Of a stretch of DNA of 64,000 bases, positions 1 to 8,496 are shown in pieces. The first letter of the stretch is position 1, and the number at the start of each line of letters is the position of its first letter. Origin of the DNA: an uncultured Nitrososphaerota archaeon (GTDB lineage: Archaea > Thermoproteota > Nitrososphaeria > Nitrososphaerales > CADDZS01); assembly GCA_963799845.1 (NCBI GenBank), contig CAWCYI010000004.1, forward strand, positions 1,056,001-1,120,000, given 5' to 3'. Under the pieces are notes generated by a model. It saw nothing but the letters and a program-made list of their open reading frames with translations. It was not told where the DNA came from and did no database searches. Both the position numbers and the translations under genes were made by a program.

Positions 1-1107
1 TGTGCCGTCGGCGATCCCTGCGGCGGTCTCATTAAGCAGTGTCTTCACGGATGCTGGGATTATACTGTCGTAGGAATGGAAGGGCCCGAGAGAACCAAGA
101 TTCAAGTTTTCTACTTGGCCTCCGATCTGGCTCCATGTGCCATTCAAGATGTGCTGGATCACTGGCTGTATGAATGCGGTCATGTTAAGGAGGACGCTTG
201 TCATCATGTCGGTTGGGGATAGATCAATTTGGTCCAAGACAGTACCTATGAGAGTAGTGTTACTAATCGTAGCTGCAGAGATTACTCCCAGTCCAGTCGT
301 GTCAGCAATTGGGACGAGGATGTCGACATGATCCGCTGTAATCATCGTCTGTGCATCTTCGTATCCGATGGTTGGGTCACTCCACGTTCCTGGAACGGTG
401 AGGTAAACCTGGGCCGAAGGATTCGAGCTGTGCACGCCAGCCTGATACGCATAGAACTCGTACGAGAGCGCTGCGAACCACTGACCGATTATGACTCCGG
501 TGGCGTTGGTCTTCGTCATTTTCCCAGATAGAACGCCTGCCAAATAGTAGCCCGTCGCTTGGTTTTGGGCGCCTAATGCTACCACGTTCTTGGTGAGGTT
601 GTCTCCGTCATATGTTGGAGTCATGATGAAGTCAACATTGGGGAATTTTGCGGCGATTGCTTCAGTTGTTCCGATGAATTGATTTCCGTCGGTCCATATC
701 ACGTTGTAGCCTTGCTGTGCGTACGATGTCATTACTGCCCCCTGATCAGAATAGGCGACATCTTGCGAGATTGAGACCGTCCAACCATAGGTGGCACCGA
801 TCCATTGCGCTACTTGAACGCCTTGATCGTTCAAACCATCATCTGTTGTGTCTCCACCGACAAGAAGCGCTAGCTTGTACTGTTGAGTTGGCGAGCTGCT
901 ACTTGTCGTCGAGCTGGTTGTGCTAGTGACGGTTGAGACGGCCGTTGAAGTGGCAGTAGTCGTGGCGGTAGTGGTCGCAGTGGTTGTGAGAGTCTTCGAA
1001 AGCGAGGGAATAGCGATCACTATCCCAATTGAAGCCACCAATATGATTACTATAACGATTATAACCGCAGCCATCGTTGAGAGTGCTTTCTTATTTTCGA
1101 ATTTCAT
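1..1107 (-). CDS. BMP-family (nucleoside/purine) ABC transporter substrate-binding protein, 3' end outside window
   Basis: Manual translation from ATG 1107 is open to base 1 (not in the ORF track because it has no stop): MKFENKKALSTMAAVIIV, Thr-rich linker, then KLALLVGGDTTDDGLNDQG...GYYLAGVLSGKMTKT...PGTWSDP...ADTTGLGVI. Adjacent to two BPD_transp_2 permeases. Confidence 0.88.
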   Translation of the reverse strand, partial: MKFENKKALSTMAAVIIVIVIILVASIGIVIAIPSLSKTLTTTATTTATTTATSTAVSTVTSTTSSTTSSSSPTQQYKLALLVGGDTTDDGLNDQGVQVAQWIGATYGWTVSISQDVAYSDQGAVMTSYAQQGYNVIWTDGNQFIGTTEAIAAKFPNVDFIMTPTYDGDNLTKNVVALGAQNQATGYYLAGVLSGKMTKTNATGVIIGQWFAALSYEFYAYQAGVHSSNPSAQVYLTVPGTWSDPTIGYEDAQTMITADHVDILVPIADTTGLGVISAATISNTTLIGTVLDQIDLSPTDMMTSVLLNMTAFIQPVIQHILNGTWSQIGGQVENLNLGSLGPFHSYDSIIPASVKTLLNETAAGIADGT

Positions 1108-1159
1108 AAAAATTCGCTGAGTATTGAATACGCTCCCGATTTTAATAAGGGAGAACACG

Positions 1160-1177
1160 ATTCTCAATCCTGAGAAT
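1160..1177. promoter_or_regulatory. Palindromic operator ATTCTCA-atcc-TGAGAAT upstream of BMP gene TATA box
   Basis: Perfect 7-4-7 palindrome, 11 bp upstream (minus strand) of TTATTAAA (1148-1141); recurs at six other promoters. Confidence 0.75.
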
Positions 1178-1213
1178 GTGATCAAGAAGGCAAGCTCTGA
1201 CCAGAGGCTTCAT

Positions 1214-2158
1214 CTACTTCCGCTTGTATGGAACGGTAAGGGACGATGGTGACTTGGTTCCCCTATGAAAGAGTAGTATGAAGATAATGGCGAAGATGTA
1301 TGGTATCGCCAGTAGGAAGTAACCCGACGCCGTTCCAAGGCCAGAGAATATGCCGGAGCCTATGAATATCGCGGCTATCGAATATCCGAGTCCAAACAGC
1401 CAAGCTCCGGCGATCGCTTTGTAAGGACTCCATCTCGCGAAAATCACGACGACGATAGCAATCCACCCCCTCCCGGCTACGAGAGTATCTCCCGTCGCGT
1501 AAAGGCCAAGGTAGCCAAGCACAAGGGATGCTCCTGCAAGGCCAGCGAGAGTAGCACCCAGGATTACACACAGGTTCCTCACCAGATTGACGTTGATTCC
1601 GGCCGAATCAGCGGCTTCGGGATTCTCTCCTACCGCCCTGATTTTGAGGCCCCAAGTGGTCCTATAAAGAACAAGACCCAAAAGTATTGCCAAGGCGAGT
1701 GAAGCGTAGACCAAGATGTTCTGGCTGAACAAAATGGGGCCCACCACCGGCAGATTACTTAGGATGGGGATTTGCACCGGTGATATAGGGCGTACATGCA
1801 AGTACGAAGTCTTCGTCACTATTATGTAACCGAAATCACCCAAGGAGAGTGCTAGGAAGTATATCATGAGTCCTGCGATCAGCTGGTTGATTCCTATCCT
1901 GATAGTTGCGAATGAGTGCAGCACACCCATGGCAGACCCTACAGCCATCGCGGCGAGAAGTCCGTACAGGTAGGAGCCTGTCGAGAAGGTAACCCACAGC
2001 GAGATGAACGCTGATAGACTCATCACTCCCTCGATGCCCATGTTAAGCACACCGGACCTCTCTGCGTAGACTTCGCCGATCGAGGCGTAAAGAATGGGCA
2101 TAGTCAGCGGCAGGCTCGCTGCCAAGATTGATATGGCAAGATCTCCGTAAGAAACCAT
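1214..2158 (-). CDS. Nucleoside/sugar ABC transporter permease (BPD_transp_2 family)
   Basis: ERSGVLNMGIEG, GLKIRAVGENPEAADSAGI and GRGWIAI motifs; probable start MVSYGD at 2158. Confidence 0.92.
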   Translation of the reverse strand: MVSYGDLAISILAASLPLTMPILYASIGEVYAERSGVLNMGIEGVMSLSAFISLWVTFSTGSYLYGLLAAMAVGSAMGVLHSFATIRIGINQLIAGLMIYFLALSLGDFGYIIVTKTSYLHVRPISPVQIPILSNLPVVGPILFSQNILVYASLALAILLGLVLYRTTWGLKIRAVGENPEAADSAGINVNLVRNLCVILGATLAGLAGASLVLGYLGLYATGDTLVAGRGWIAIVVVIFARWSPYKAIAGAWLFGLGYSIAAIFIGSGIFSGLGTASGYFLLAIPYIFAIIFILLFHRGTKSPSSLTVPYKRK

Positions 2159-2166
2159 CCCATTCT

Positions 2167-3198
2167 TTACCCCTTGTTCGTCCTGTCGCCGATCCACTTC
2201 TGAACGATTAGGACAGACAGCACTATAATCGCCTGCAGAGCGTAGATCAATTCGATTGGTATAGCCGCGGCGCTGCGCTGCAGGCTCTCGCCACCAATTG
2301 TCAGCGCGGCATACAATACGGAGGCGATGACGATGCCCAACGGATGGAACGCACCCAGTGCAGCCACGGCGATTCCCTGATAGCCGTACCCGGGCGAGAA
2401 GTTCTGCGCGAGCACGTGGTCAACGCCTGCTACGACTACGATCCCTGCTAGTCCCGCGAGCGCCCCACTCATTAGGCCCACCGCGACTATGCTCCTTGAG
2501 ACATTGATGCCACCGCTCTGTGCCGCTCGTGGGTTCGCCCCAGACGCCCTGATTTCATATCCTAGAACCGTCTTGTAGAGAACAAAGTACACTGCGAAGG
2601 CTGCAATCCCGGCGATTATGGCACCTATGTTGAATTCCGTGCTCTGGACAAAGACAGGGAGCCAAGTCGACTGCGGCAAGGCTGGAGTCTGAAGGTTACC
2701 CGACAGCGGATCCTTAAGAGGTCCCGCCGTGAGCCAGTTCACTAGGTCCAAGGCAATAAAATTCATGACGAGCGTCGGAAAAATTTCGTTTACTTGGAGC
2801 TTGACTCTCATGAAGAGTGGCAGCGCTAGCCAGAGTGTTCCTCCAGCCGCAGCTGCCAAAAGCATCAGTGGAATTGCAATCACGCTGGGAAGATTGCCGA
2901 GCTGGGCAGCCGCCACATAGCCGAACAATGCACCAATGTAGAGCTGACCCTCTACCCCGATGTTGTAGAATCTAGCCCTGAACGCCACAAGGAATGCAAG
3001 AGCAGCGAGCAGAAGGGGTGCCGTGAGAAAGAATGTCTCGGAGGTGAGAAAGGTTGTACCAAATGACCCTGTTACGAGACCCTCCATGCTCGTGATAGGA
3101 TTGTATCCGAAAGCCAAGAGAATGAGAGAGAAAATTACCAGCGACGCAACAATCCCGAGCAAGTATGAGACGTAATTTCCCAGGGATAGTTGCGTCAT
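2167..3198 (-). CDS. Nucleoside/sugar ABC transporter permease (BPD_transp_2 family)
   Basis: FYNIGVEGQ, GYEIRASGANPRAA and GYGYQGIAVA motifs; multi-pass membrane protein. Confidence 0.92.
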   Translation of the reverse strand: MTQLSLGNYVSYLLGIVASLVIFSLILLAFGYNPITSMEGLVTGSFGTTFLTSETFFLTAPLLLAALAFLVAFRARFYNIGVEGQLYIGALFGYVAAAQLGNLPSVIAIPLMLLAAAAGGTLWLALPLFMRVKLQVNEIFPTLVMNFIALDLVNWLTAGPLKDPLSGNLQTPALPQSTWLPVFVQSTEFNIGAIIAGIAAFAVYFVLYKTVLGYEIRASGANPRAAQSGGINVSRSIVAVGLMSGALAGLAGIVVVAGVDHVLAQNFSPGYGYQGIAVAALGAFHPLGIVIASVLYAALTIGGESLQRSAAAIPIELIYALQAIIVLSVLIVQKWIGDRTNKG

Positions 3199-3222
3199 AA
3201 TACACCCCACACAGGCATCCGA

Positions 3223-4488
3223 TTAGGCGTACTCGGCCGCAAAAGTTGTGAGGGCTTTTTTGAATGCCTCCATCGGCGCCTCAGCGATCCCGGTACCTAT
3301 TATCCCATGGCCGCCGTCCTTGTGAGCAATTCCAGTATCAACTCTTGGCGGGGAATTGAGCTCTACTACTTTGCGAATGTCAATCCCGACTGGGACGCCG
3401 ACAAAATCCATGTAGGGAATTCTGAATAGTGGGTCTTCGGCAAGAGAGACTTTTTGCATCGCTCGTGTGTGTTGGACTGCCTCGTCAAGCCCACCTCCGA
3501 AAAGTCTCGCTTGGGAGGGAGATGCGGGTAACGCGGTTCCTCCGAACCCTCTGGATTCCGAGATCGCGCTATCGCCTATATCTGGAGCTGCGTCAGCTGC
3601 CGTGAAACCGGGGAATAGAAAACCTTTGATCTCTCCGGCCGGACCGGTAAACCATTCGTCACCGAGGGCGCTTACCTTGATCCCGAAATCAACACCATTT
3701 CTTGCCATCGCGGTCACAACCGTACTGTACTTTATCCCTTTGGCCGAGTCCATCATCACCTTGCAAGCGCCCATCATCAAGTTGCCGCAGTACCAGCGAC
3801 CACCATTTCCCATGAAGTAGTCGCCGACCTCTCCCAAAGTCTCCTTGGGAAAGCCAGTCCTAACAATGTGGGGAAGAATCCAGTTCATGAGAACGCCACG
3901 ACAGGCTTCGAAAGAACCGTGTAATTCGTCGCCCATGGTAAGCCCCTTGGAAAGCAATTCTTTGATATTGAATCCACCTGCGTGCTTGATGGTCGCCGCG
4001 AGAACAGGAGCCATCGTCTCCTTGACAAACTCAACTTCCTTGATTGCCCGCTCATATTTGTCGGCAAACGATGTTAGATCTGTCTGCATCCAGTCGGTTG
4101 CAGTGTTACCGTGCACCTTGTCTTTGAGAACCAGAACCGGACTCGATGCTGATGTCACGCCGCACATACCGCTTACATTTCCGTAATTGTGATTGGGTTC
4201 AATTCTGACCTCGCCCGTCCTAGCGAGCTTCTCCGCACGTCGCGCAGTATCGGCGAGGCCTTCCGCCCTAATTGCGTTGATAATAGCGATCTTTTGAACT
4301 TTGATCATTCTGTCCCATTCGATTGGCGGCCCGGCGTGTGTAATCAGGTCGCTCTTGTATCCTGATATTGCTTTAATCGCTGGTTTCAGGTCAACCAAAA
4401 CCGCTTCAGATTCAAGTATTCTGGCAACAGCTTTTCCGTTAGCTTCATCGATCTGGTCTTTCAGCTCACTACTCAAATTAGCTAGCAC
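3223..4488 (-). CDS. DUF1116 family protein (YlbE/AllG-like, oxamate carbamoyltransferase subunit family)
   Basis: HAGPPIEW, MGDELH, MARNGVDFGI, PDIGDSAI and TGIAHK motifs; divergent from carbamate kinase. Confidence 0.85.
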   Translation of the reverse strand: MLANLSSELKDQIDEANGKAVARILESEAVLVDLKPAIKAISGYKSDLITHAGPPIEWDRMIKVQKIAIINAIRAEGLADTARRAEKLARTGEVRIEPNHNYGNVSGMCGVTSASSPVLVLKDKVHGNTATDWMQTDLTSFADKYERAIKEVEFVKETMAPVLAATIKHAGGFNIKELLSKGLTMGDELHGSFEACRGVLMNWILPHIVRTGFPKETLGEVGDYFMGNGGRWYCGNLMMGACKVMMDSAKGIKYSTVVTAMARNGVDFGIKVSALGDEWFTGPAGEIKGFLFPGFTAADAAPDIGDSAISESRGFGGTALPASPSQARLFGGGLDEAVQHTRAMQKVSLAEDPLFRIPYMDFVGVPVGIDIRKVVELNSPPRVDTGIAHKDGGHGIIGTGIAEAPMEAFKKALTTFAAEYA

Positions 4489-4559
4489 TTCTATTTTTCA
4501 GCAACATTCTTAGAATAGGCTCTAGTTTTCGACGTGTAGACAATTTAAGTACGGGGACG

Positions 4560-4577
4560 ATCTTCAGATCTGAGAAC
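4560..4577. promoter_or_regulatory. Operator variant ATCTTCA-gatc-TGAGAAC upstream of DUF1116 operon TATA
   Basis: Same 7-4-7 layout; 11 bp from TTAAAT on the minus strand. Confidence 0.65.
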
Positions 4578-4615
4578 GTCAAACAAGCCGCTCAAGCTAG
4601 AAGACTATTGTGTTG

Positions 4616-4633
4616 ATTCTCAAGTATGAGAAT
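4616..4633. promoter_or_regulatory. Operator ATTCTCA-agta-TGAGAAT upstream of arcC TATA
   Basis: Perfect palindrome 13 bp upstream of TTATAT (4647). Confidence 0.75.
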
Positions 4634-4726
4634 CGTCATGTCGGATTATATGTTGCAATGAACAAAAATCCTCTCTCTGGGATTTGGTATCCGGCCTTTT
4701 AGATTTTAGATGTTCCATGGCAAGTC

Positions 4727-5734
4727 GTGAATGACAAAATTTCCTTGAATGAAGAGGAGAGGGATAAGATATTGGGAAGATATGCGAATGCCAAGAAGAA
4801 AATTTTAGTCGCCCTGGGCGGAAACGCCCTCATAACGCATGGAGAATCAGGCATAATTGAACAAGAGGAAAATGCCAAGGCTGCTGTCAAGCATCTGGTT
4901 AAACTTCTTGAAGAGGGTAATAAATTGGTGATAACCCATGGTAACGGACCTCAAGTTGGAGACATCCTCCTAAGGAATGAAATTGCGAAGGATACAGTTC
5001 CGGCCATGCCACTCGACGTATGTGGTGCCGAAAGCCAAGGGATGATCGGTTACGTACTCCAGCAATCTCTCTACAATGAATTAAGAAGGAAGGGCAAGAA
5101 TACTCCGGTCGCTACGATTCTCACGCAATCAATAGTCGACAAGGCTGATCCGGCGTTCAAGAAGCCCACAAAACCAATTGGTCCATTTTATACGAAAATC
5201 GAATCTTCAAAGCTGTCACGAAAAAAGGGATGGAAAATGATCAACGACAGTGGTCGGGGTTATCGACGCGTCGTACCTTCCCCGCGCCCGATTGCGATTC
5301 CGGAGTTTCCGATAATTAAGGAATTGTTTGATCGTAACTACATCATAATTCAATCTGGAGGCGGAGGCATTCCAGTTGTGCGTAAGCAGAATGGGACGCT
5401 GATTGGCGTGGAGGCTGTTGTCGACAAAGATCTTTGCGCGTCCTTGCTTGCTTCTCTTCTCAAGACTGATGTATTGTTAATCCTGACCGACGTTGACAAA
5501 GTTAGGCTGAACTACGGCAGACCGGACCAAAGATCTCTTGACAGAATGACAGCGGACGAATGCAAGAAATATCTTGCGGAGGGGCAATTCCCTGCAGGAA
5601 GCATGGGCCCTAAAATAGAAGCAGCGATGAATTTTGTTAAATCTGGAAAAGAAAAGACTGCGATAATTACGTCGTTAGAGCTTGCTGAGACAGCATTGAA
5701 AGGCGAGACCGGCACGAGAATTGTAAATTCGTAA
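4727..5734 (+). CDS. arcC: Carbamate kinase
   Basis: VALGGNAL, THGNGPQVG, PTKPIGPFY, GGGGIPV and GSMGPKIEA motifs. Confidence 0.96.
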   Translation: MNDKISLNEEERDKILGRYANAKKKILVALGGNALITHGESGIIEQEENAKAAVKHLVKLLEEGNKLVITHGNGPQVGDILLRNEIAKDTVPAMPLDVCGAESQGMIGYVLQQSLYNELRRKGKNTPVATILTQSIVDKADPAFKKPTKPIGPFYTKIESSKLSRKKGWKMINDSGRGYRRVVPSPRPIAIPEFPIIKELFDRNYIIIQSGGGGIPVVRKQNGTLIGVEAVVDKDLCASLLASLLKTDVLLILTDVDKVRLNYGRPDQRSLDRMTADECKKYLAEGQFPAGSMGPKIEAAMNFVKSGKEKTAIITSLELAETALKGETGTRIVNS

Positions 5735-5991: not shown

Positions 5992-6216
5992 ATGTCAACA
6001 GTAATGAAAGAGACAGTCGAGGAAGAGCGTCCGGTTTCGTTGTCACATGTGAGGCAGCAAATACTGACCTATGGTGACGAAATACACGCGTTTCTGGAAC
6101 ATGTTCACGCAGATGTAGAGAACTATAAGTTCACCGTGGAAAAACGTGCAGATGGCGTAGTAGTTGAGATCAACTTTAAGGCCTTGATCAAAACGAAGCC
6201 GGTTCTGAAGCCATAG
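5992..6216 (+). CDS. Small hypothetical protein (74 aa)
   Basis: ATG ORF with protein-like composition, own promoter, no competing ORF. Confidence 0.7.
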   Translation: MSTVMKETVEEERPVSLSHVRQQILTYGDEIHAFLEHVHADVENYKFTVEKRADGVVVEINFKALIKTKPVLKP

Positions 6217-6316
6217 GTCTAAGCCGAACTGACTTTACTTAATTGTCCTCGTTCTCAACGAGGACTTCACCTAATTGGCAGGAATTTGACCTGTAACGAA
6301 GGATGGTTGTGAACAA

Positions 6317-6667
6317 TTGAATCTGAGACAAACTCGGCGAAAATCGAATTCTAAGATTCAGCAATCAGATAGGGCTGTTATATCTTCTCCAACCTTCTTG
6401 AAATTAGATGATTCGATTCTGATGGGTATTGATCGAAGAACCGCCGGAGAGCTCGTGGCTGGGTATCTCTACTTCAAATCAACTCGCAGAACGGATGCCG
6501 ATTTCACTCGTTTTCTGTTGGCCAACAGATTAGATGTTGTCTTGCGGATAGTTGGGAATTCTCTCCCAGTGCTAATACCTGCGTTCTTCTCCGACAAGGA
6601 ATTAAGATCGTTAGTTGTAAACGTTTTCATGAGATCATTTTATAGTTTAGAGCCGAATCAGTACTGA
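6317..6667 (+). CDS. Hypothetical protein (true start probably 6398 or 6422)
   Basis: A TATA-like TTATAT at 6378 lies inside the annotated N-terminus, suggesting a later start. Confidence 0.55.
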   Translation: MNLRQTRRKSNSKIQQSDRAVISSPTFLKLDDSILMGIDRRTAGELVAGYLYFKSTRRTDADFTRFLLANRLDVVLRIVGNSLPVLIPAFFSDKELRSLVVNVFMRSFYSLEPNQY

Positions 6668-6795
6668 AGGGAAAGCGGCCCGCAGGTTGCTTCATTTCTG
6701 GAAAGAATCACACTTCCGATCGTACGGGCCCCATTAGGAGGGTAGACGAAAAATTAGTGTAATAAGTCAAACCGGTATGAATTCTCACTCGGCTC

Positions 6796-6832
6796 AATTT
6801 CATTTTTGAGAATCGTCTACCCCACTTTAATA
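6796..6832 (+). promoter_or_regulatory. Operator AATTTCA-tttt-TGAGAAT plus TATA box TTTAATA driving the candidate ncRNA
   Basis: Motif 6796-6813, TATA 6826-6832 (12-bp gap as at the other copies); no long ORF follows. Confidence 0.7.
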
Positions 6833-6856
6833 TTGGCTGTGTGTACTTATTCATTC

Positions 6857-7088
6857 GTCGTTCGGCCAGGTAAAGGTTGTATTTGGAGACAAGAAAAAGC
6901 ACTGGGTAAGGGCTTAGTGCATGGCGCCTATCTCTGACCGTCCGGGTGAGTATGTAGAAACGGGTTCACCCGAACTTCGGACACTCTCGGACGAGGGCAA
7001 ACCGAGACAGTGGGAATGAAGGAAATCTACGTAGCCGCTGTCAAAGGAAAGCCACATGCGTCCTGAAAGCCGAATGGCATTATTTTTT
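6857..7088 (+). ncRNA. Candidate ~230-nt multi-stem structured non-coding RNA (family not recognised)
   Basis: Closing stem 6857-6870/7062-7078; nested TGGC/GCCA, CCT/AGG, TGAC/GTCA, CGG/CCG and TATGTAGA/TCTACGTA; hairpins 6899-6920, 6961-6972 and 6982-7012; G-U wobbles favour the + strand; T-tract at 7083-7088. Confidence 0.6.
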
Positions 7089-7745
7089 CCAAGACCAAGC
7101 AAAAGGTTTCTGTTGTTCTGCGGTTTGACTAAGATAAACATCAGGAGTTGTTTCACGAATTGATCCGTGATCAACATCGAGAATGAATATCGTATGGACT
7201 TCGGCATAGGTAATTTGATCTATCGTTACTGCGGGATTTGAATAGTACATATCACAAACGAATTTAGCCATTTGAACTTCCGCAGTGTTTCTGAATCGAG
7301 GAGGCTGTTGGAAGATGCCTGGAACCGGCAGGATATTTGTGACAGTCGTCCCCAAAACGAATCTATTTGCAAACGGACTGTATCTTGCGGTCTTACTGAT
7401 TATTCTTGCATAACAGTATCTTGCAGGATCAAGCGCATGGGAAGGGGGAACAAAACCCGTCTCAATCTCGACTATCATGGTGCTCTCACCCTTCATGCCG
7501 TAGACATCGCAAACCAGATTATCCTTCAATTCGTGCTCGACTTTGACTTCGTAGCCTTCAGAAATCAGTTTGTCCGCGCACAACAGTTCAATTACAGAGT
7601 GATTGATCTTGACAAGGTTCTTCCTATAGAGATCGACGAGGTGCAGCCTCACAGAATCAAGTTTGGCCTTGACTTCTGGGGATCGTCCTATCGAAACTCT
7701 CCTGCACATCTCCACTAGATCATCATCAAATCTCTTTACATTCAA
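7080..7745 (-). CDS. Archaeal hypothetical protein with PD-(D/E)xK-like motif
   Basis: VEHE...CDVYG...IVEIETGFVPP resembles a restriction-endonuclease-like fold core. Confidence 0.7.
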   Translation of the reverse strand: MNVKRFDDDLVEMCRRVSIGRSPEVKAKLDSVRLHLVDLYRKNLVKINHSVIELLCADKLISEGYEVKVEHELKDNLVCDVYGMKGESTMIVEIETGFVPPSHALDPARYCYARIISKTARYSPFANRFVLGTTVTNILPVPGIFQQPPRFRNTAEVQMAKFVCDMYYSNPAVTIDQITYAEVHTIFILDVDHGSIRETTPDVYLSQTAEQQKPFAWSWKK

Positions 7746-7837
7746 CAGTTATTGTACACTGCAATCAAATCACTGACTATCATAGAATATAAAAGAAAAA
7801 GCATGGATCCTGTCAGAAATTCTTCCCGCTCTTGATG

Positions 7838-7855
7838 ATTATCAAATCGGAGAAT
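7838..7855 (+). promoter_or_regulatory. Operator variant ATTATCA-aatc-GGAGAAT
   Basis: 11-13 bp upstream of TTTTTTAT (7867), before the 7921-mgtA cluster. Confidence 0.55.
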
Positions 7856-7920
7856 CGTATAACCTCTTTTTTATCCTGCTTTGATATTACTTGTACGTTG
7901 AATAATGTGGGAACCTGGAA

Positions 7921-8496
7921 ATGTTGAATGATCAAGAACGATTACAGCACAAGAAGGAAGTAGCAGAGCTGGTGATCAAGGATATCGAACTTCTGGAGGG
8001 TGATGTCCGCAAGGGGATGTTCCCAGCCGAGACAGAACCCGAACAAATAATTGAACTTGTGAAAGCGCTCGCGAGCCTAAGTGGGGGTATAGATGTGGTA
8101 AACCTACAGAAAATCTTAGGCATACATAGTGACGAAATGGAACGATTAGTAAACGCTAGCCAGATCTTGGGCTTCACGAGTATCCACAATGGTCTTATCT
8201 GGTTAAGTGGGGCTGGAACGGAGCTGGGCAATTCTCCGATGAGCAAGAAAAGGCAGCTTATATCAGAAAGGATTTCCTTACTCGAACCTTTTAGGACAGC
8301 GATCGATATTGCGACTAAATCCAAGAGTTTCTCATCAGACAAAGTAGCTGATGTCCTCTCAAAGAAAGACCTCAGATGGGCAGAGGAAGAAGAGCTGAAT
8401 GAGTTACTTGTCCACGACATTCTTGTAGACTGCGCGGTTTTTGCAGGATTGCTTGAGTATGATGGAAGGACTGATATGTTTAGCCTGCGGTCGTGA
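7921..8496 (+). CDS. Stand-alone AAA-associated (nitrate/sulfonate ABC ATPase C-terminal-like, wHTH) domain protein
   Basis: GGIDVVNL...LVNASQILGF...IWLSGAG...FAGLLEYD pattern resembles AAA_assoc_C. Confidence 0.65.
   Translation: MLNDQERLQHKKEVAELVIKDIELLEGDVRKGMFPAETEPEQIIELVKALASLSGGIDVVNLQKILGIHSDEMERLVNASQILGFTSIHNGLIWLSGAGTELGNSPMSKKRQLISERISLLEPFRTAIDIATKSKSFSSDKVADVLSKKDLRWAEEEELNELLVHDILVDCAVFAGLLEYDGRTDMFSLRS

Follow-up and report, generated by a model that had tools for sequence, protein, structure and literature searches.

A conserved archaeal gene for a structured RNA, very probably matured into a circle at a bulge-helix-bulge motif, and its nuclease-like protein neighbor

In archaea, the splicing endonuclease cuts after the second base of each bulge of a bulge-helix-bulge motif, and in Thermoproteus, where the gene for the signal recognition particle (SRP) RNA is permuted, the SRP RNA is circular. 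OLE (with Oap proteins), ROOL, GOLLD and Y RNA (with Ro) are large or ornate bacterial RNAs that have protein partners or self-assemble. Archaeal 23S ribosomal RNA (rRNA) forms a circle closed by a GNRA tetraloop at its bulge-helix-bulge joint, according to the available part of one report (PMC12918454), and the available part of a 2025 survey of archaeal circular RNAs lists circles of rRNA, transfer RNA (tRNA), C/D-box RNA, SRP RNA, RNase P RNA and omega RNA, with circular SRP and RNase P RNA forms given for Sulfolobus and Haloferax (PMC12558985). The same part of that survey contains nothing resembling the RNA described here. This RNA gene lies at 6855-7088 on the + strand of a stretch of 64,000 nucleotides (nt) of contig CAWCYI010000004.1 from an uncultured Nitrososphaerota archaeon; the whole stretch is called the window, all positions refer to it, and the window's own genome, of 4.6 Mb, is called G000. 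We report that the stretch encodes a conserved, structured RNA of soil ammonia oxidizers and related archaea whose product is very probably a circle of about 195 nt, and that the RNA gene is accompanied in many lineages by an orphan protein gene, found here at 7080-7745 on the - strand.

An earlier note on this DNA had proposed a stand-alone structured RNA at this position, and both folding energy and substitution pattern bear this out. For the + strand of 6855-7090, the folding energy is -82.6 kcal/mol (z -3.20 versus dinucleotide shuffles, 0 of 200 as low), compared with z -1.80 and 9 of 200 shuffles as low for the - strand. The RNA is single-copy in its own genome, and of 41 genomes searched at the DNA level, 8 contain relatives, counting that of the window itself. 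In an alignment of seven sequences, compensatory changes occur in 37 of 71 predicted pairs. The covariance model derived from these seven (R1) detected the RNA in 32 of the 151 genomes sampled from the order, and a second model built from 30 sequences (R2) in 44 of the 151, while four genomes missed by R1 do carry the RNA. In a phylum-wide sample it is found in 2 of 151 genomes, namely the own genome and one of another order, and homologues are also present in metagenome-assembled genomes (MAGs) labelled Bathyarchaeia. As the genome scans score about 15 candidates per genome and miss real copies, the counts obtained from them are lower bounds. In the 30-sequence alignment, 90.9% of cells form standard pairs, versus 29.5-38.4% when the partners are slid by one to three columns, and 56 of the 71 pairs show changes on both sides, with none of 500 column shuffles attaining the observed values. 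The G-U pairs are consistent with the + strand alone. The alignment was fitted to the model, which favors its structure, yet the slid controls and the pair-type counts leave little doubt. The stretch is thus a real gene for a conserved structured RNA, as shown by covariation in 56 of its 71 pairs among 30 homologues.

The earlier note had taken the product for a linear RNA of ~230 nt closed by the stem between 6857 and 7078, with transcript ends expected at about 6855 and 7085. We compared one soil metatranscriptome (X8) and three DNA metagenomes (X2, X5 and X7) with the window over 6600-7800. The X8 RNA run covers 6894-7068 only. Two X8 contigs run from 7026 and 7048, respectively, to 7068 and then directly into a close relative's counterpart of 6874 and onward, and the permuted 3'-to-5' joint reads CCUG-AAAA-GG, as predicted. 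The DNA contigs, on the other hand, are collinear with the window (X2 over 6600-6912 and 6890-7697, X5 over 6870-7154, X7 over 6900-7253). The joint is permuted in RNA and the DNA is collinear, and we therefore conclude that the product is very probably a circle of about 195 nt, for which the proposed closing stem is a processing site that is discarded.

Pairing of the transcript ends creates a bulge-helix-bulge motif, in which an outer helix of 10 bp is followed by a central helix of 4 bp flanked by one 3-nt bulge per strand; the motif is canonical on the 3' side and relaxed on the 5' side. In the outer helix, 6857-6866 pairs with 7069-7078; all 10 of its pairs have changed on both sides, so that covariation supports this part of the closing stem drawn in the earlier note, and 97.3% of cells are paired. 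Both strands would be discarded after cleavage, and both are absent from the RNA contigs. The 5' strand of the central helix, CAGG at 6867-6870, pairs in the precursor with CCUG at 7062-7065, each of the four pairs being formed in 29 of 30 homologues and three of them showing changes on both sides. The 5' bulge UAA (6871-6873) has A as its third base in 29 of 30 homologues while its first two bases vary, and the 3' bulge AAA (7066-7068), exactly 3 nt long in the alignment, has A and A/G as its first two bases in 30 of 30 while its third base varies. Cuts after the second base of each bulge are thus predicted to give a circle of 195 nt that begins at 6873 and ends at 7067, with four A's at the joint, whose position is open by one base in either direction owing to this run of A.

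Ligation would bring the conserved remnants of the two bulges together, and the joined G-A-R-A is a GNRA tetraloop in 29 of 30 homologues. Immediately 3' of this 5' bulge, the final three bases of the central helix strand are repeated in all sequences (AGG, GGG, GGN or GAR). This repeat, at 6874-6876 in the window, pairs with the same CCU, CCC, UCC or UUC that paired with the leader, with AU/GC exchanges; column pairs 20-240 and 21-239 are present in all 30 sequences and 22-238 in 26 of them. As the model behind the alignment treated the repeat columns as unpaired, their covariation is not an effect of fitting. The strand CCU, within CCUG at 7062-7065, therefore has two alternative partners, of which 6867-6870 builds the cleavage site of the precursor and 6874-6876 a helix that is possible only in the circle; three columns covary with both. 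The same bulge and tetraloop pattern is found in sequences labelled Bathyarchaeia and in family f15. The sequence from the other order retains the tetraloop and the closing pair, with two of the three repeat pairs mismatched. When the 195-mer of the window is folded in the circular mode of RNAfold, it reaches -61.2 kcal/mol (z -2.58, 0 of 200 shuffles as low), and the tetraloop hairpin and the other arms are recovered. The genome encodes two EndA-family proteins (PF01974; 91.3 and 80.4 bits) and one RtcB (PF01139; 575.2 bits), which presumably perform the cutting and the joining. Collectively, these observations make a circular structured RNA produced through a bulge-helix-bulge motif very likely, and we infer that the circle, rather than its precursor, would be the active form.

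The circle is organized as a four-arm junction whose linkers measure 0-2 nt. Arm 1 is formed by 6874-6882 and 7056-7064 and would be capped after ligation by G7065-A7066-A7067-A6873; 7 of its 9 pairs have changed on both sides. Arm 2 (6883-6937) comprises a helix (6883-6889/6931-6937), an internal loop and a hairpin (6899-6907/6912-6920), with changes on both sides in 8 of 8 pairs of the helix and 9 of 10 of the hairpin, the latter being the 5' hairpin at 6899-6920 already recognized in the earlier note. The 3' side of the internal loop of arm 2 holds the palindrome GGCGCC (6923-6928). A perfect palindrome of 6-10 nt is found at this site in 27 of 53 homologues, versus 16.7% of shuffled segments, and it changes yet stays palindromic, reading CUGGUACCAG, CAGGUACCUG, UCGGUACCGA, CUGCGCAG or CCGCGCGG where the window has GGCGCC. 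Judged by this pattern, the palindrome might be a site for pairing between two circles.

Arm 3 (6939-6993) consists of a helix (6939-6946/6986-6993) and an apical hairpin (6961-6964/6969-6972), with changes on both sides in 7 of 10 and 4 of 4 pairs, respectively, the latter being the CGGG/CCCG hairpin of the earlier note. The region 6994-7055 contains arm 4 (6996-7053) and an invariant core. It starts with A6994-G6995, continues with GGC 6996-6998 paired to GCC 7051-7053, an A-rich symmetric 3x3 loop and CC 7002-7003 paired to GG 7046-7047, followed by a long helix (7006-7013/7035-7042; 8 of 9 pairs changed on both sides) and an apical loop (7026-7033), and it ends with the junction bases A7054-C7055. 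Besides A-G, GGC/GCC, the A-rich 3x3 loop and CY/RG, the invariant core includes the C-G pair that closes arm 3 and the junction ACA; across the 30 homologues, GAGGGCNAAC and GAAAGCCACAU show little or no variation. The 5' internal loop of arm 3 (6951-6958) pairs with the apical loop of arm 4 (7026-7033), a long-range contact also seen in the earlier note. A column-wise count of this pairing gives 58.7% owing to misaligned loops. Counted irrespective of register, 5 or more contiguous pairs are formed in 22 of 30 sequences, with a mean of 4.87 versus 3.77 in shuffles, although significance per sequence is weak, since in many sequences the observed helix length is attained by 6-63% of shuffles. 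From family to family, the two paired words change in concert (GUAG/CUAC, GCGG/CCGC, GUGG/CCAC, GUGA/UCAC and GGGG/CCCC). About half of the inner helices that the earlier note had drawn are not conserved: TGGC/GCCA, CCT/AGG, TGAC/GTCA, CGG/CCG, CTCGG/CCGAG and CACT/AGTG pair in 6-27 of 30 sequences with no compensatory pattern, and these six compete with helices that do covary.

The gene on the opposite strand directly 3' of the RNA (7080-7745, -) encodes an orphan protein of 221 amino acids, a conserved neighbor that we propose as partner of the RNA. No Pfam, NCBIfam or PADLOC family matches it, and no relative was found in the PDB by sequence, neither with the single sequence nor with a profile. 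Pfam yields no family for the protein itself, for 32 aligned members or for any of 10 distant members, and, apart from a weak PDDEXK_14 lead at 0.85, the ESM Atlas lists nothing but archaeal clusters without names. All 707 relatives in a 90%-identity collection are unnamed or "hypothetical"; at 50% identity they amount to 250 representatives of uniform length (~215 amino acids in the family), and the family is small and slowly evolving. An AlphaFold2 model was obtained with a predicted local distance difference test (pLDDT) value of 93.1 and a predicted template modelling (pTM) score of 0.90, and the best PDB matches of this model in Foldseek are all PD-(D/E)xK nucleases (XisH, CdiA-CT tRNase, SfsA, AF1548, NucS and Can2). 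We weakly assign a PD-(D/E)xK-like fold to the protein on the basis of this model. Down to 24% identity, H49, E70, D80, E93 and K118 do not vary and E95 and Y122 hardly do, which suggests that these residues may constitute an active site.

The linkage of the two genes had escaped the earlier note. Within the 151-genome sample, 41 genomes contain both RNA and protein, 3 the RNA only (these are 88-91% complete), 36 the protein only and 71 neither. In 34 of the 41 genomes with both, the two genes lie within 1.4 kb of each other, and their arrangements, read from coordinates, differ: convergent and abutting in 4, protein then RNA in tandem in 17, separated by a phosphoribosyltransferase gene in the order RNA-phosphoribosyltransferase-protein in 10, and divergent with a gene between in 3. 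Similarly, 23 of 30 RNA loci have the protein gene within 1.5 kb, and among 80 named protein loci the RNA is found within 3 kb in 21, including those of Nitrosocaldus, Nitrososphaera and three MAGs labelled Bathyarchaeia. Other neighbors vary by lineage (rhomboid, phosphoribosyltransferase, carbamoyl-phosphate synthase, CBS, 3-hydroxyacyl-CoA dehydrogenase), and no third conserved neighbor was found among the lineages. A known RNA does not take the place of the present one in RNA-less lineages, as judged by 0 Rfam matches in 20 protein loci. The RNA is thus nearly never present without the protein and stays beside its gene through rearrangement, which leads us to propose that it may act with the neighboring protein as a dedicated RNA ligand, be it cofactor, scaffold or regulator; judging from gene content and order, the chances of this are about even.

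Individual loci display further features. In family f9, the phosphoribosyltransferase gene is always located between the RNA and the nuclease-like gene, all on a single strand (L003 and L018, ~1730-2410), and a rhomboid protease gene, convergent with the RNA, is located on its far side in families f4 and f8 (L033 839-1492, L037 1842-2390, L077 4026-4580). In G017, an SRP RNA gene is positioned directly 5' of the nuclease-like gene and a tRNA gene nearby (L012 2543-2853 (-) and 868-952 (-)), placing the protein gene between two structured-RNA genes, perhaps by chance, given 20 other protein loci free of Rfam RNAs. In G097, an RNase P RNA gene is found ~1.9 kb from the protein gene (L049 274-554 (-)). 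With respect to the RNA itself, some family f4 genomes carry a second, more divergent copy (~96 bits versus 151-176; G032 contig C99:332-559 and G069 contig C76:2340-2566), and G087 harbors two equally scoring copies on different contigs (C8 and C10). A shortened form of 24.5 bits, apparently devoid of most of the 3' domain, occurs ~1.3 kb from the protein gene (L052 1031-1221, which corresponds to G133, and L081 1531-1721). Low-G+C, Nitrosotalea-like candidates (L062, L099, L128, L133 and L140; 19-35 bits) retain the GGCAA/GCCA core, and their ends form no recognizable bulge-helix-bulge motif; these candidate homologues may be matured differently. In 4 of these 5 loci they are convergent to the protein gene.

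Taken together, a circle made at a bulge-helix-bulge motif and acting with the neighboring protein is in our view the probable, and overall the best, explanation of this locus. A transcript would be initiated at the TATA promoter of the RNA, and its ends would pair into the archaeal bulge-helix-bulge motif, within which the tRNA-splicing endonuclease would cut two bases into each bulge. RtcB would then join the ends, releasing a covalently closed RNA of 195 nt (6873-7067), and the outer stem would be discarded. Joining would turn the bulge remnants into the GNRA tetraloop, and CCU would switch its partner from the leader to the internal repeat, making arm 1. The circle would fold into the four-arm junction with its invariant core, loop-loop pairing between arms 3 and 4 and a self-complementary loop in arm 2, which could let two circles pair. 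The nuclease-resistant circle would be the functional product and a dedicated RNA ligand of the orphan PD-(D/E)xK-like protein. In its most far-reaching form, which we put forward tentatively and consider rather doubtful, this proposal describes a new class of archaeal ribonucleoprotein: a purpose-built circle, dimerizing via its palindromic loop, might serve as obligatory cofactor, scaffold or switch of a PD-(D/E)xK-type nuclease, conserved from Nitrososphaeria to Bathyarchaeia and placed here in a nucleoside/ureide-catabolism regulon.

Several points weigh against this explanation. The evidence for circularity consists of two contigs of depth 2 and one RNA run, from close relatives that are ~91-97% alike and not from this organism; the X8 contigs can give neither abundance nor absence, so that the missing RNA cover over the protein gene and the flanks says nothing about expression of the protein, and the precursor ends are predicted ones. 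Within the run of A, splits of 1+3 and 3+1 read identically, which leaves the joint open by one base either way, and the 5' bulge conforms to the canonical motif provided that the AGG repeat is regarded as displaced, the alternative being a bulge of 6-7 nt and a relaxed motif. Regarding the protein, the Foldseek matches range from 3e-3 to 1e-1 in expectation value (E), with TM scores of 0.2-0.5 and none at E <= 0.001, and the canonical (D/E)xK lysine is replaced by glutamate E95, giving a motif D...ExE with the invariant K118 on the next helix. As for the linkage, the sampled genomes are related, so that co-occurrence counts overstate independence; 36 genomes have the protein without a detectable RNA, and 7 of the 41 genomes with both carry them on different contigs. 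In family f12, most genomes contain the protein and no detectable RNA: no diverged RNA was found beside the protein with filters off, the intergenic gaps there being too short, and a DNA search of the family retrieved a low-G+C RNA in 2 of 61 genomes. The pair is also patchily distributed, with RNA and protein both missing from many near-complete genomes, and is therefore dispensable.

Among the alternatives, the one that survives best is that the circular RNA is real yet independent, with a regulatory, scaffold or housekeeping role, and that the neighboring gene reflects inherited gene order. In its favor are the 36 of 77 protein-bearing genomes that have no detectable RNA and the 7 of 41 with the pair on separate contigs, together with the RNA's separate promoter across the lineages and the fact that single-gene inversions keep neighbors together without selection. 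We nevertheless consider independence unlikely, because just 3 of 44 RNA-bearing genomes lack the protein, these being 88-91% complete, because proximity is kept through four arrangements and into MAGs labelled Bathyarchaeia, and because every other neighbor varies by lineage.

A selfish or defensive pair, that is, an RNA antitoxin with a nuclease toxin, a defense system or the guide RNA of a transposon-derived nuclease, would likewise unite a nuclease-like protein with a small stable RNA, and it would fit the patchy distribution of the protein (77 of 151 genomes). Archaeal omega RNAs of IS200/IS605 elements also have circular forms, according to the available part of the 2025 survey (PMC12558985). 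However, the RNA is single-copy, Tandem Repeats Finder detects no tandem repeat over 6600-7900, and the protein belongs to no PADLOC family. Neither 50,697 phage records nor 72,556 plasmid records contain a match. Searched with Pfam, the protein shows no RuvC, HNH or transposase domain, and its family is small, slowly evolving and uniform in length (250 representatives). Moreover, the variable parts of the RNA are base-paired and not free guides. A pair of this kind is accordingly improbable.

The view that the functional RNA is the linear transcript of ~230 nt, closed by the 6857/7078 stem, and that the circle is a rare by-product, draws on the length and covariation of the stem and on the T tract that follows the RNA in this genome (7081-7088). 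The earlier note had read this tract as the terminator of the gene, and the tract itself is present here, whereas a T run 3' of the RNA is found in just 11 of 36 homologous loci. In addition, the X8 contigs hold the joint and none of the stem, the stem sequence varies freely while the tetraloop bases are fixed and the discarded bulge bases are not, and a helix that can be formed only after ligation covaries. We thus regard a functional linear form as very improbable.

Circularization makes permuted genes possible, and linear models score such genes poorly, so that the RNA could in principle be a permuted copy of a known family missed by covariance models, as in the permuted SRP gene of Thermoproteus. 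The searches against known families speak against this. Rfam 15 returned 0 matches at gathering score in the whole 64-kb window, in line with the suggestion of the earlier note that the RNA is possibly a new class, and none of the Rfam matches in 11 homologous loci overlaps the RNA. At E up to 10 over 6650-7250, chance-level matches alone were obtained (best 18.9 bits, E 0.84, cut-off 50), and the sequence in gene order gave no partial match to any large family at this threshold. RNase P RNA (188.8 bits) and SRP RNA (90.1 bits) genes of full length are located elsewhere, on another contig of the genome, and gene order already gives a coherent nested fold. A permuted known family is hence highly improbable. 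The genome's SRP RNA (G000 contig C6:631481-631792), at 90.1 bits, falls below the Rfam gathering score of 96.5 and would be missed by standard annotation. Rfam 15 contains neither this RNA family nor its four-arm architecture with the tetraloop created by ligation, nor its link to a family of orphan proteins with a nuclease-like fold, all of which we consider new; searches of the full-text literature likewise turned up neither the RNA nor the protein, with the reservation that supplementary tables of circular RNA surveys might list the RNA.

Finally, the 32-codon open reading frame (ORF) at 6921-7019, raised as a caveat in the earlier note, is open in this genome, yet a coding role for its 32-residue peptide has next to no probability, as the aligned start codon is present in 5 of 30 homologues, an in-frame stop precedes the aligned end in 16 of 30, the segment length is a multiple of three in just 4 of 30, and substitutions preserve pairing.

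The sequence elements listed in the earlier note are all present in the locus: the TATA box TTTAATA at 6826-6832, the closing-stem halves GTCGTTCGGC-CAGG at 6857-6870 and CCTG-AAA-GCCGAATGGC at 7062-7078, and the ORF discussed above. Transcription from this TATA box is predicted to start near 6855, and the putative precursor (6855-7088) would comprise leader, RNA, trailer and T tract, with a covariance-model match over 6855-7079. A TATA-like hexamer is located 22-40 nt 5' of the RNA in 31 of 36 homologous loci, compared with 6 of 36 in a control window, which confirms the promoter postulated in the earlier note; as a stand-alone gene, the RNA is served in every lineage by a promoter of its own. 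A scan for bacterial-type promoters and terminators was uninformative for an archaeon.

Upstream of the TATA box lies an operator-like palindromic site (6781-6813), with half-sites ATTCTCA (6781-6787) and TGAGAAT (6807-6813) spaced by 19 nt. The 18-mer at 6796-6813, suggested as a repeated operator, occurs only once in the window; it holds the right half of a palindrome, TTCTCA-N-TGAGAA, which is the repeated unit. Three copies of this palindrome are found in the window versus 0.27 expected, and 1 of 100 shuffles gets to three; with a 4-nt spacer (TTCTCA-N4-TGAGAA), 9 exact sites are present genome-wide (contigs C4 and C6 of the 4.6-Mb genome) versus 0 for a control pattern. A regulon-type palindrome upstream of the RNA is thereby substantiated. 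In three other genomes (G007, G029 and G117) the palindrome precedes the RNA with a short spacing of N4-N6, as compared with 19 nt here. From these sequence patterns, a regulated promoter for the RNA is plausible.

The other two palindromes of the window are located at 1161-1176 and 4617-4632, in front of genes for a PnrA-like nucleoside-binding component of an ATP-binding cassette (ABC) transporter and a carbamate kinase, with an AllG gene in between. Genome-wide, TTCTCA-N4-TGAGAA is often trailed by TCGTC and, ~10 nt further on, by a TATA box, and marks a small regulon. The cluster at 1-5734, which contains the PnrA-like binding protein, two permeases, AllG (an oxamate carbamoyltransferase subunit) and carbamate kinase, looks like nucleoside uptake combined with the end of purine/ureide breakdown. 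Such a cluster is notable in a relative of ammonia oxidizers, as the pathway yields ammonia. Furthermore, a perfect 10-bp inverted repeat, GGGTAGACGA at 6740-6749 and TCGTCTACCC at 6813-6822, brackets the operator region just 5' of the TATA box, and a degenerate copy of the operator half-site with a T-rich box is present at 7838-7875, 5' of a gene at 7921-8496 with an AAA_assoc_C domain.

Few archaea in soils and sediments are as abundant as the ammonia oxidizers and Bathyarchaeia, and to our knowledge almost no non-coding RNAs beyond the universal ones have been found in them. If our explanation holds, this would be the first stand-alone gene with a structured circular RNA as its sole evident product via the bulge-helix-bulge pathway. 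Since the site of ligation ends up as a GNRA-capped helix, circularization seems to be an integral part of the fold. In addition, the RNA offers a first functional handle on an orphan protein family with ~700 members at 90% identity and 250 representatives at 50%, and the joint, the cleavage sites, the partner protein and the candidate regulatory site are predicted to the base.

Compared with the TnpB and IscB systems and their omega RNAs, the proposed partner here has no RuvC, HNH or other Pfam domain, and the RNA is single-copy with no phage or plasmid match. Type III toxin-antitoxin systems differ from this locus, where no tandem repeat is present in 6600-7900 and no PADLOC family was assigned. 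The protein may resemble the PD-(D/E)xK superfamily in its modelled alpha-beta-beta-beta-alpha-beta core and in the invariant E70, D80, E93 and K118 and the nearly invariant Y122, whereas no sequence model recognizes it and it has extra N-terminal helices and a C-terminal domain. In a by-eye comparison with H/ACA RNAs, the invariant ACA at 7054-7056 follows arm 4 and lies within the four-way junction. What the locus has in common with OLE, ROOL, GOLLD and Y RNA is a highly structured orphan RNA whose gene is tied to that of one protein, with possible self-pairing loops, and, as in the case of Ro and Y RNA, the detected range of the protein is wider than that of the RNA. Unlike OLE, ROOL and GOLLD, the present RNA is archaeal, far smaller and, by our analysis, very probably circular, its putative partner has a nuclease-like fold, and no sequence or model similarity to them was found.

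The closest parallels concern the way the RNA is made. Circular tRNA introns, in archaea and as metazoan tricRNAs, are excised circles of the same kind made by the same enzymes; here, however, all conservation resides in the excised "intron", the "exons" amount to a stem that is thrown away, and no tRNA is present (ARAGORN finds 0 tRNA or tmRNA genes over 6000-8000). Like the circular SRP RNA of Thermoproteus, this is a stable non-coding RNA whose working fold would be completed by bulge-helix-bulge-dependent circularization; yet circular SRP and RNase P RNAs belong to known families, whereas the present RNA matches none and its gene is not permuted. In circular archaeal 23S rRNA and in circular pre-rRNA intermediates, as given in the available part of the report, the flanks likewise form a long processing stem, both bulges are cleaved, and the ends are ligated into a circle with a GNRA tetraloop at the joint (PMC12918454). 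In that case, an rRNA is cut from an operon transcript, whereas the 195-nt RNA described here has its own gene, no similarity to rRNA and a conserved protein-gene neighbor. Ribosomal RNA, tRNA introns and some SRP RNAs are already known to be made by this route; the novelty lies in the RNA family itself, its architecture and its proposed partner.

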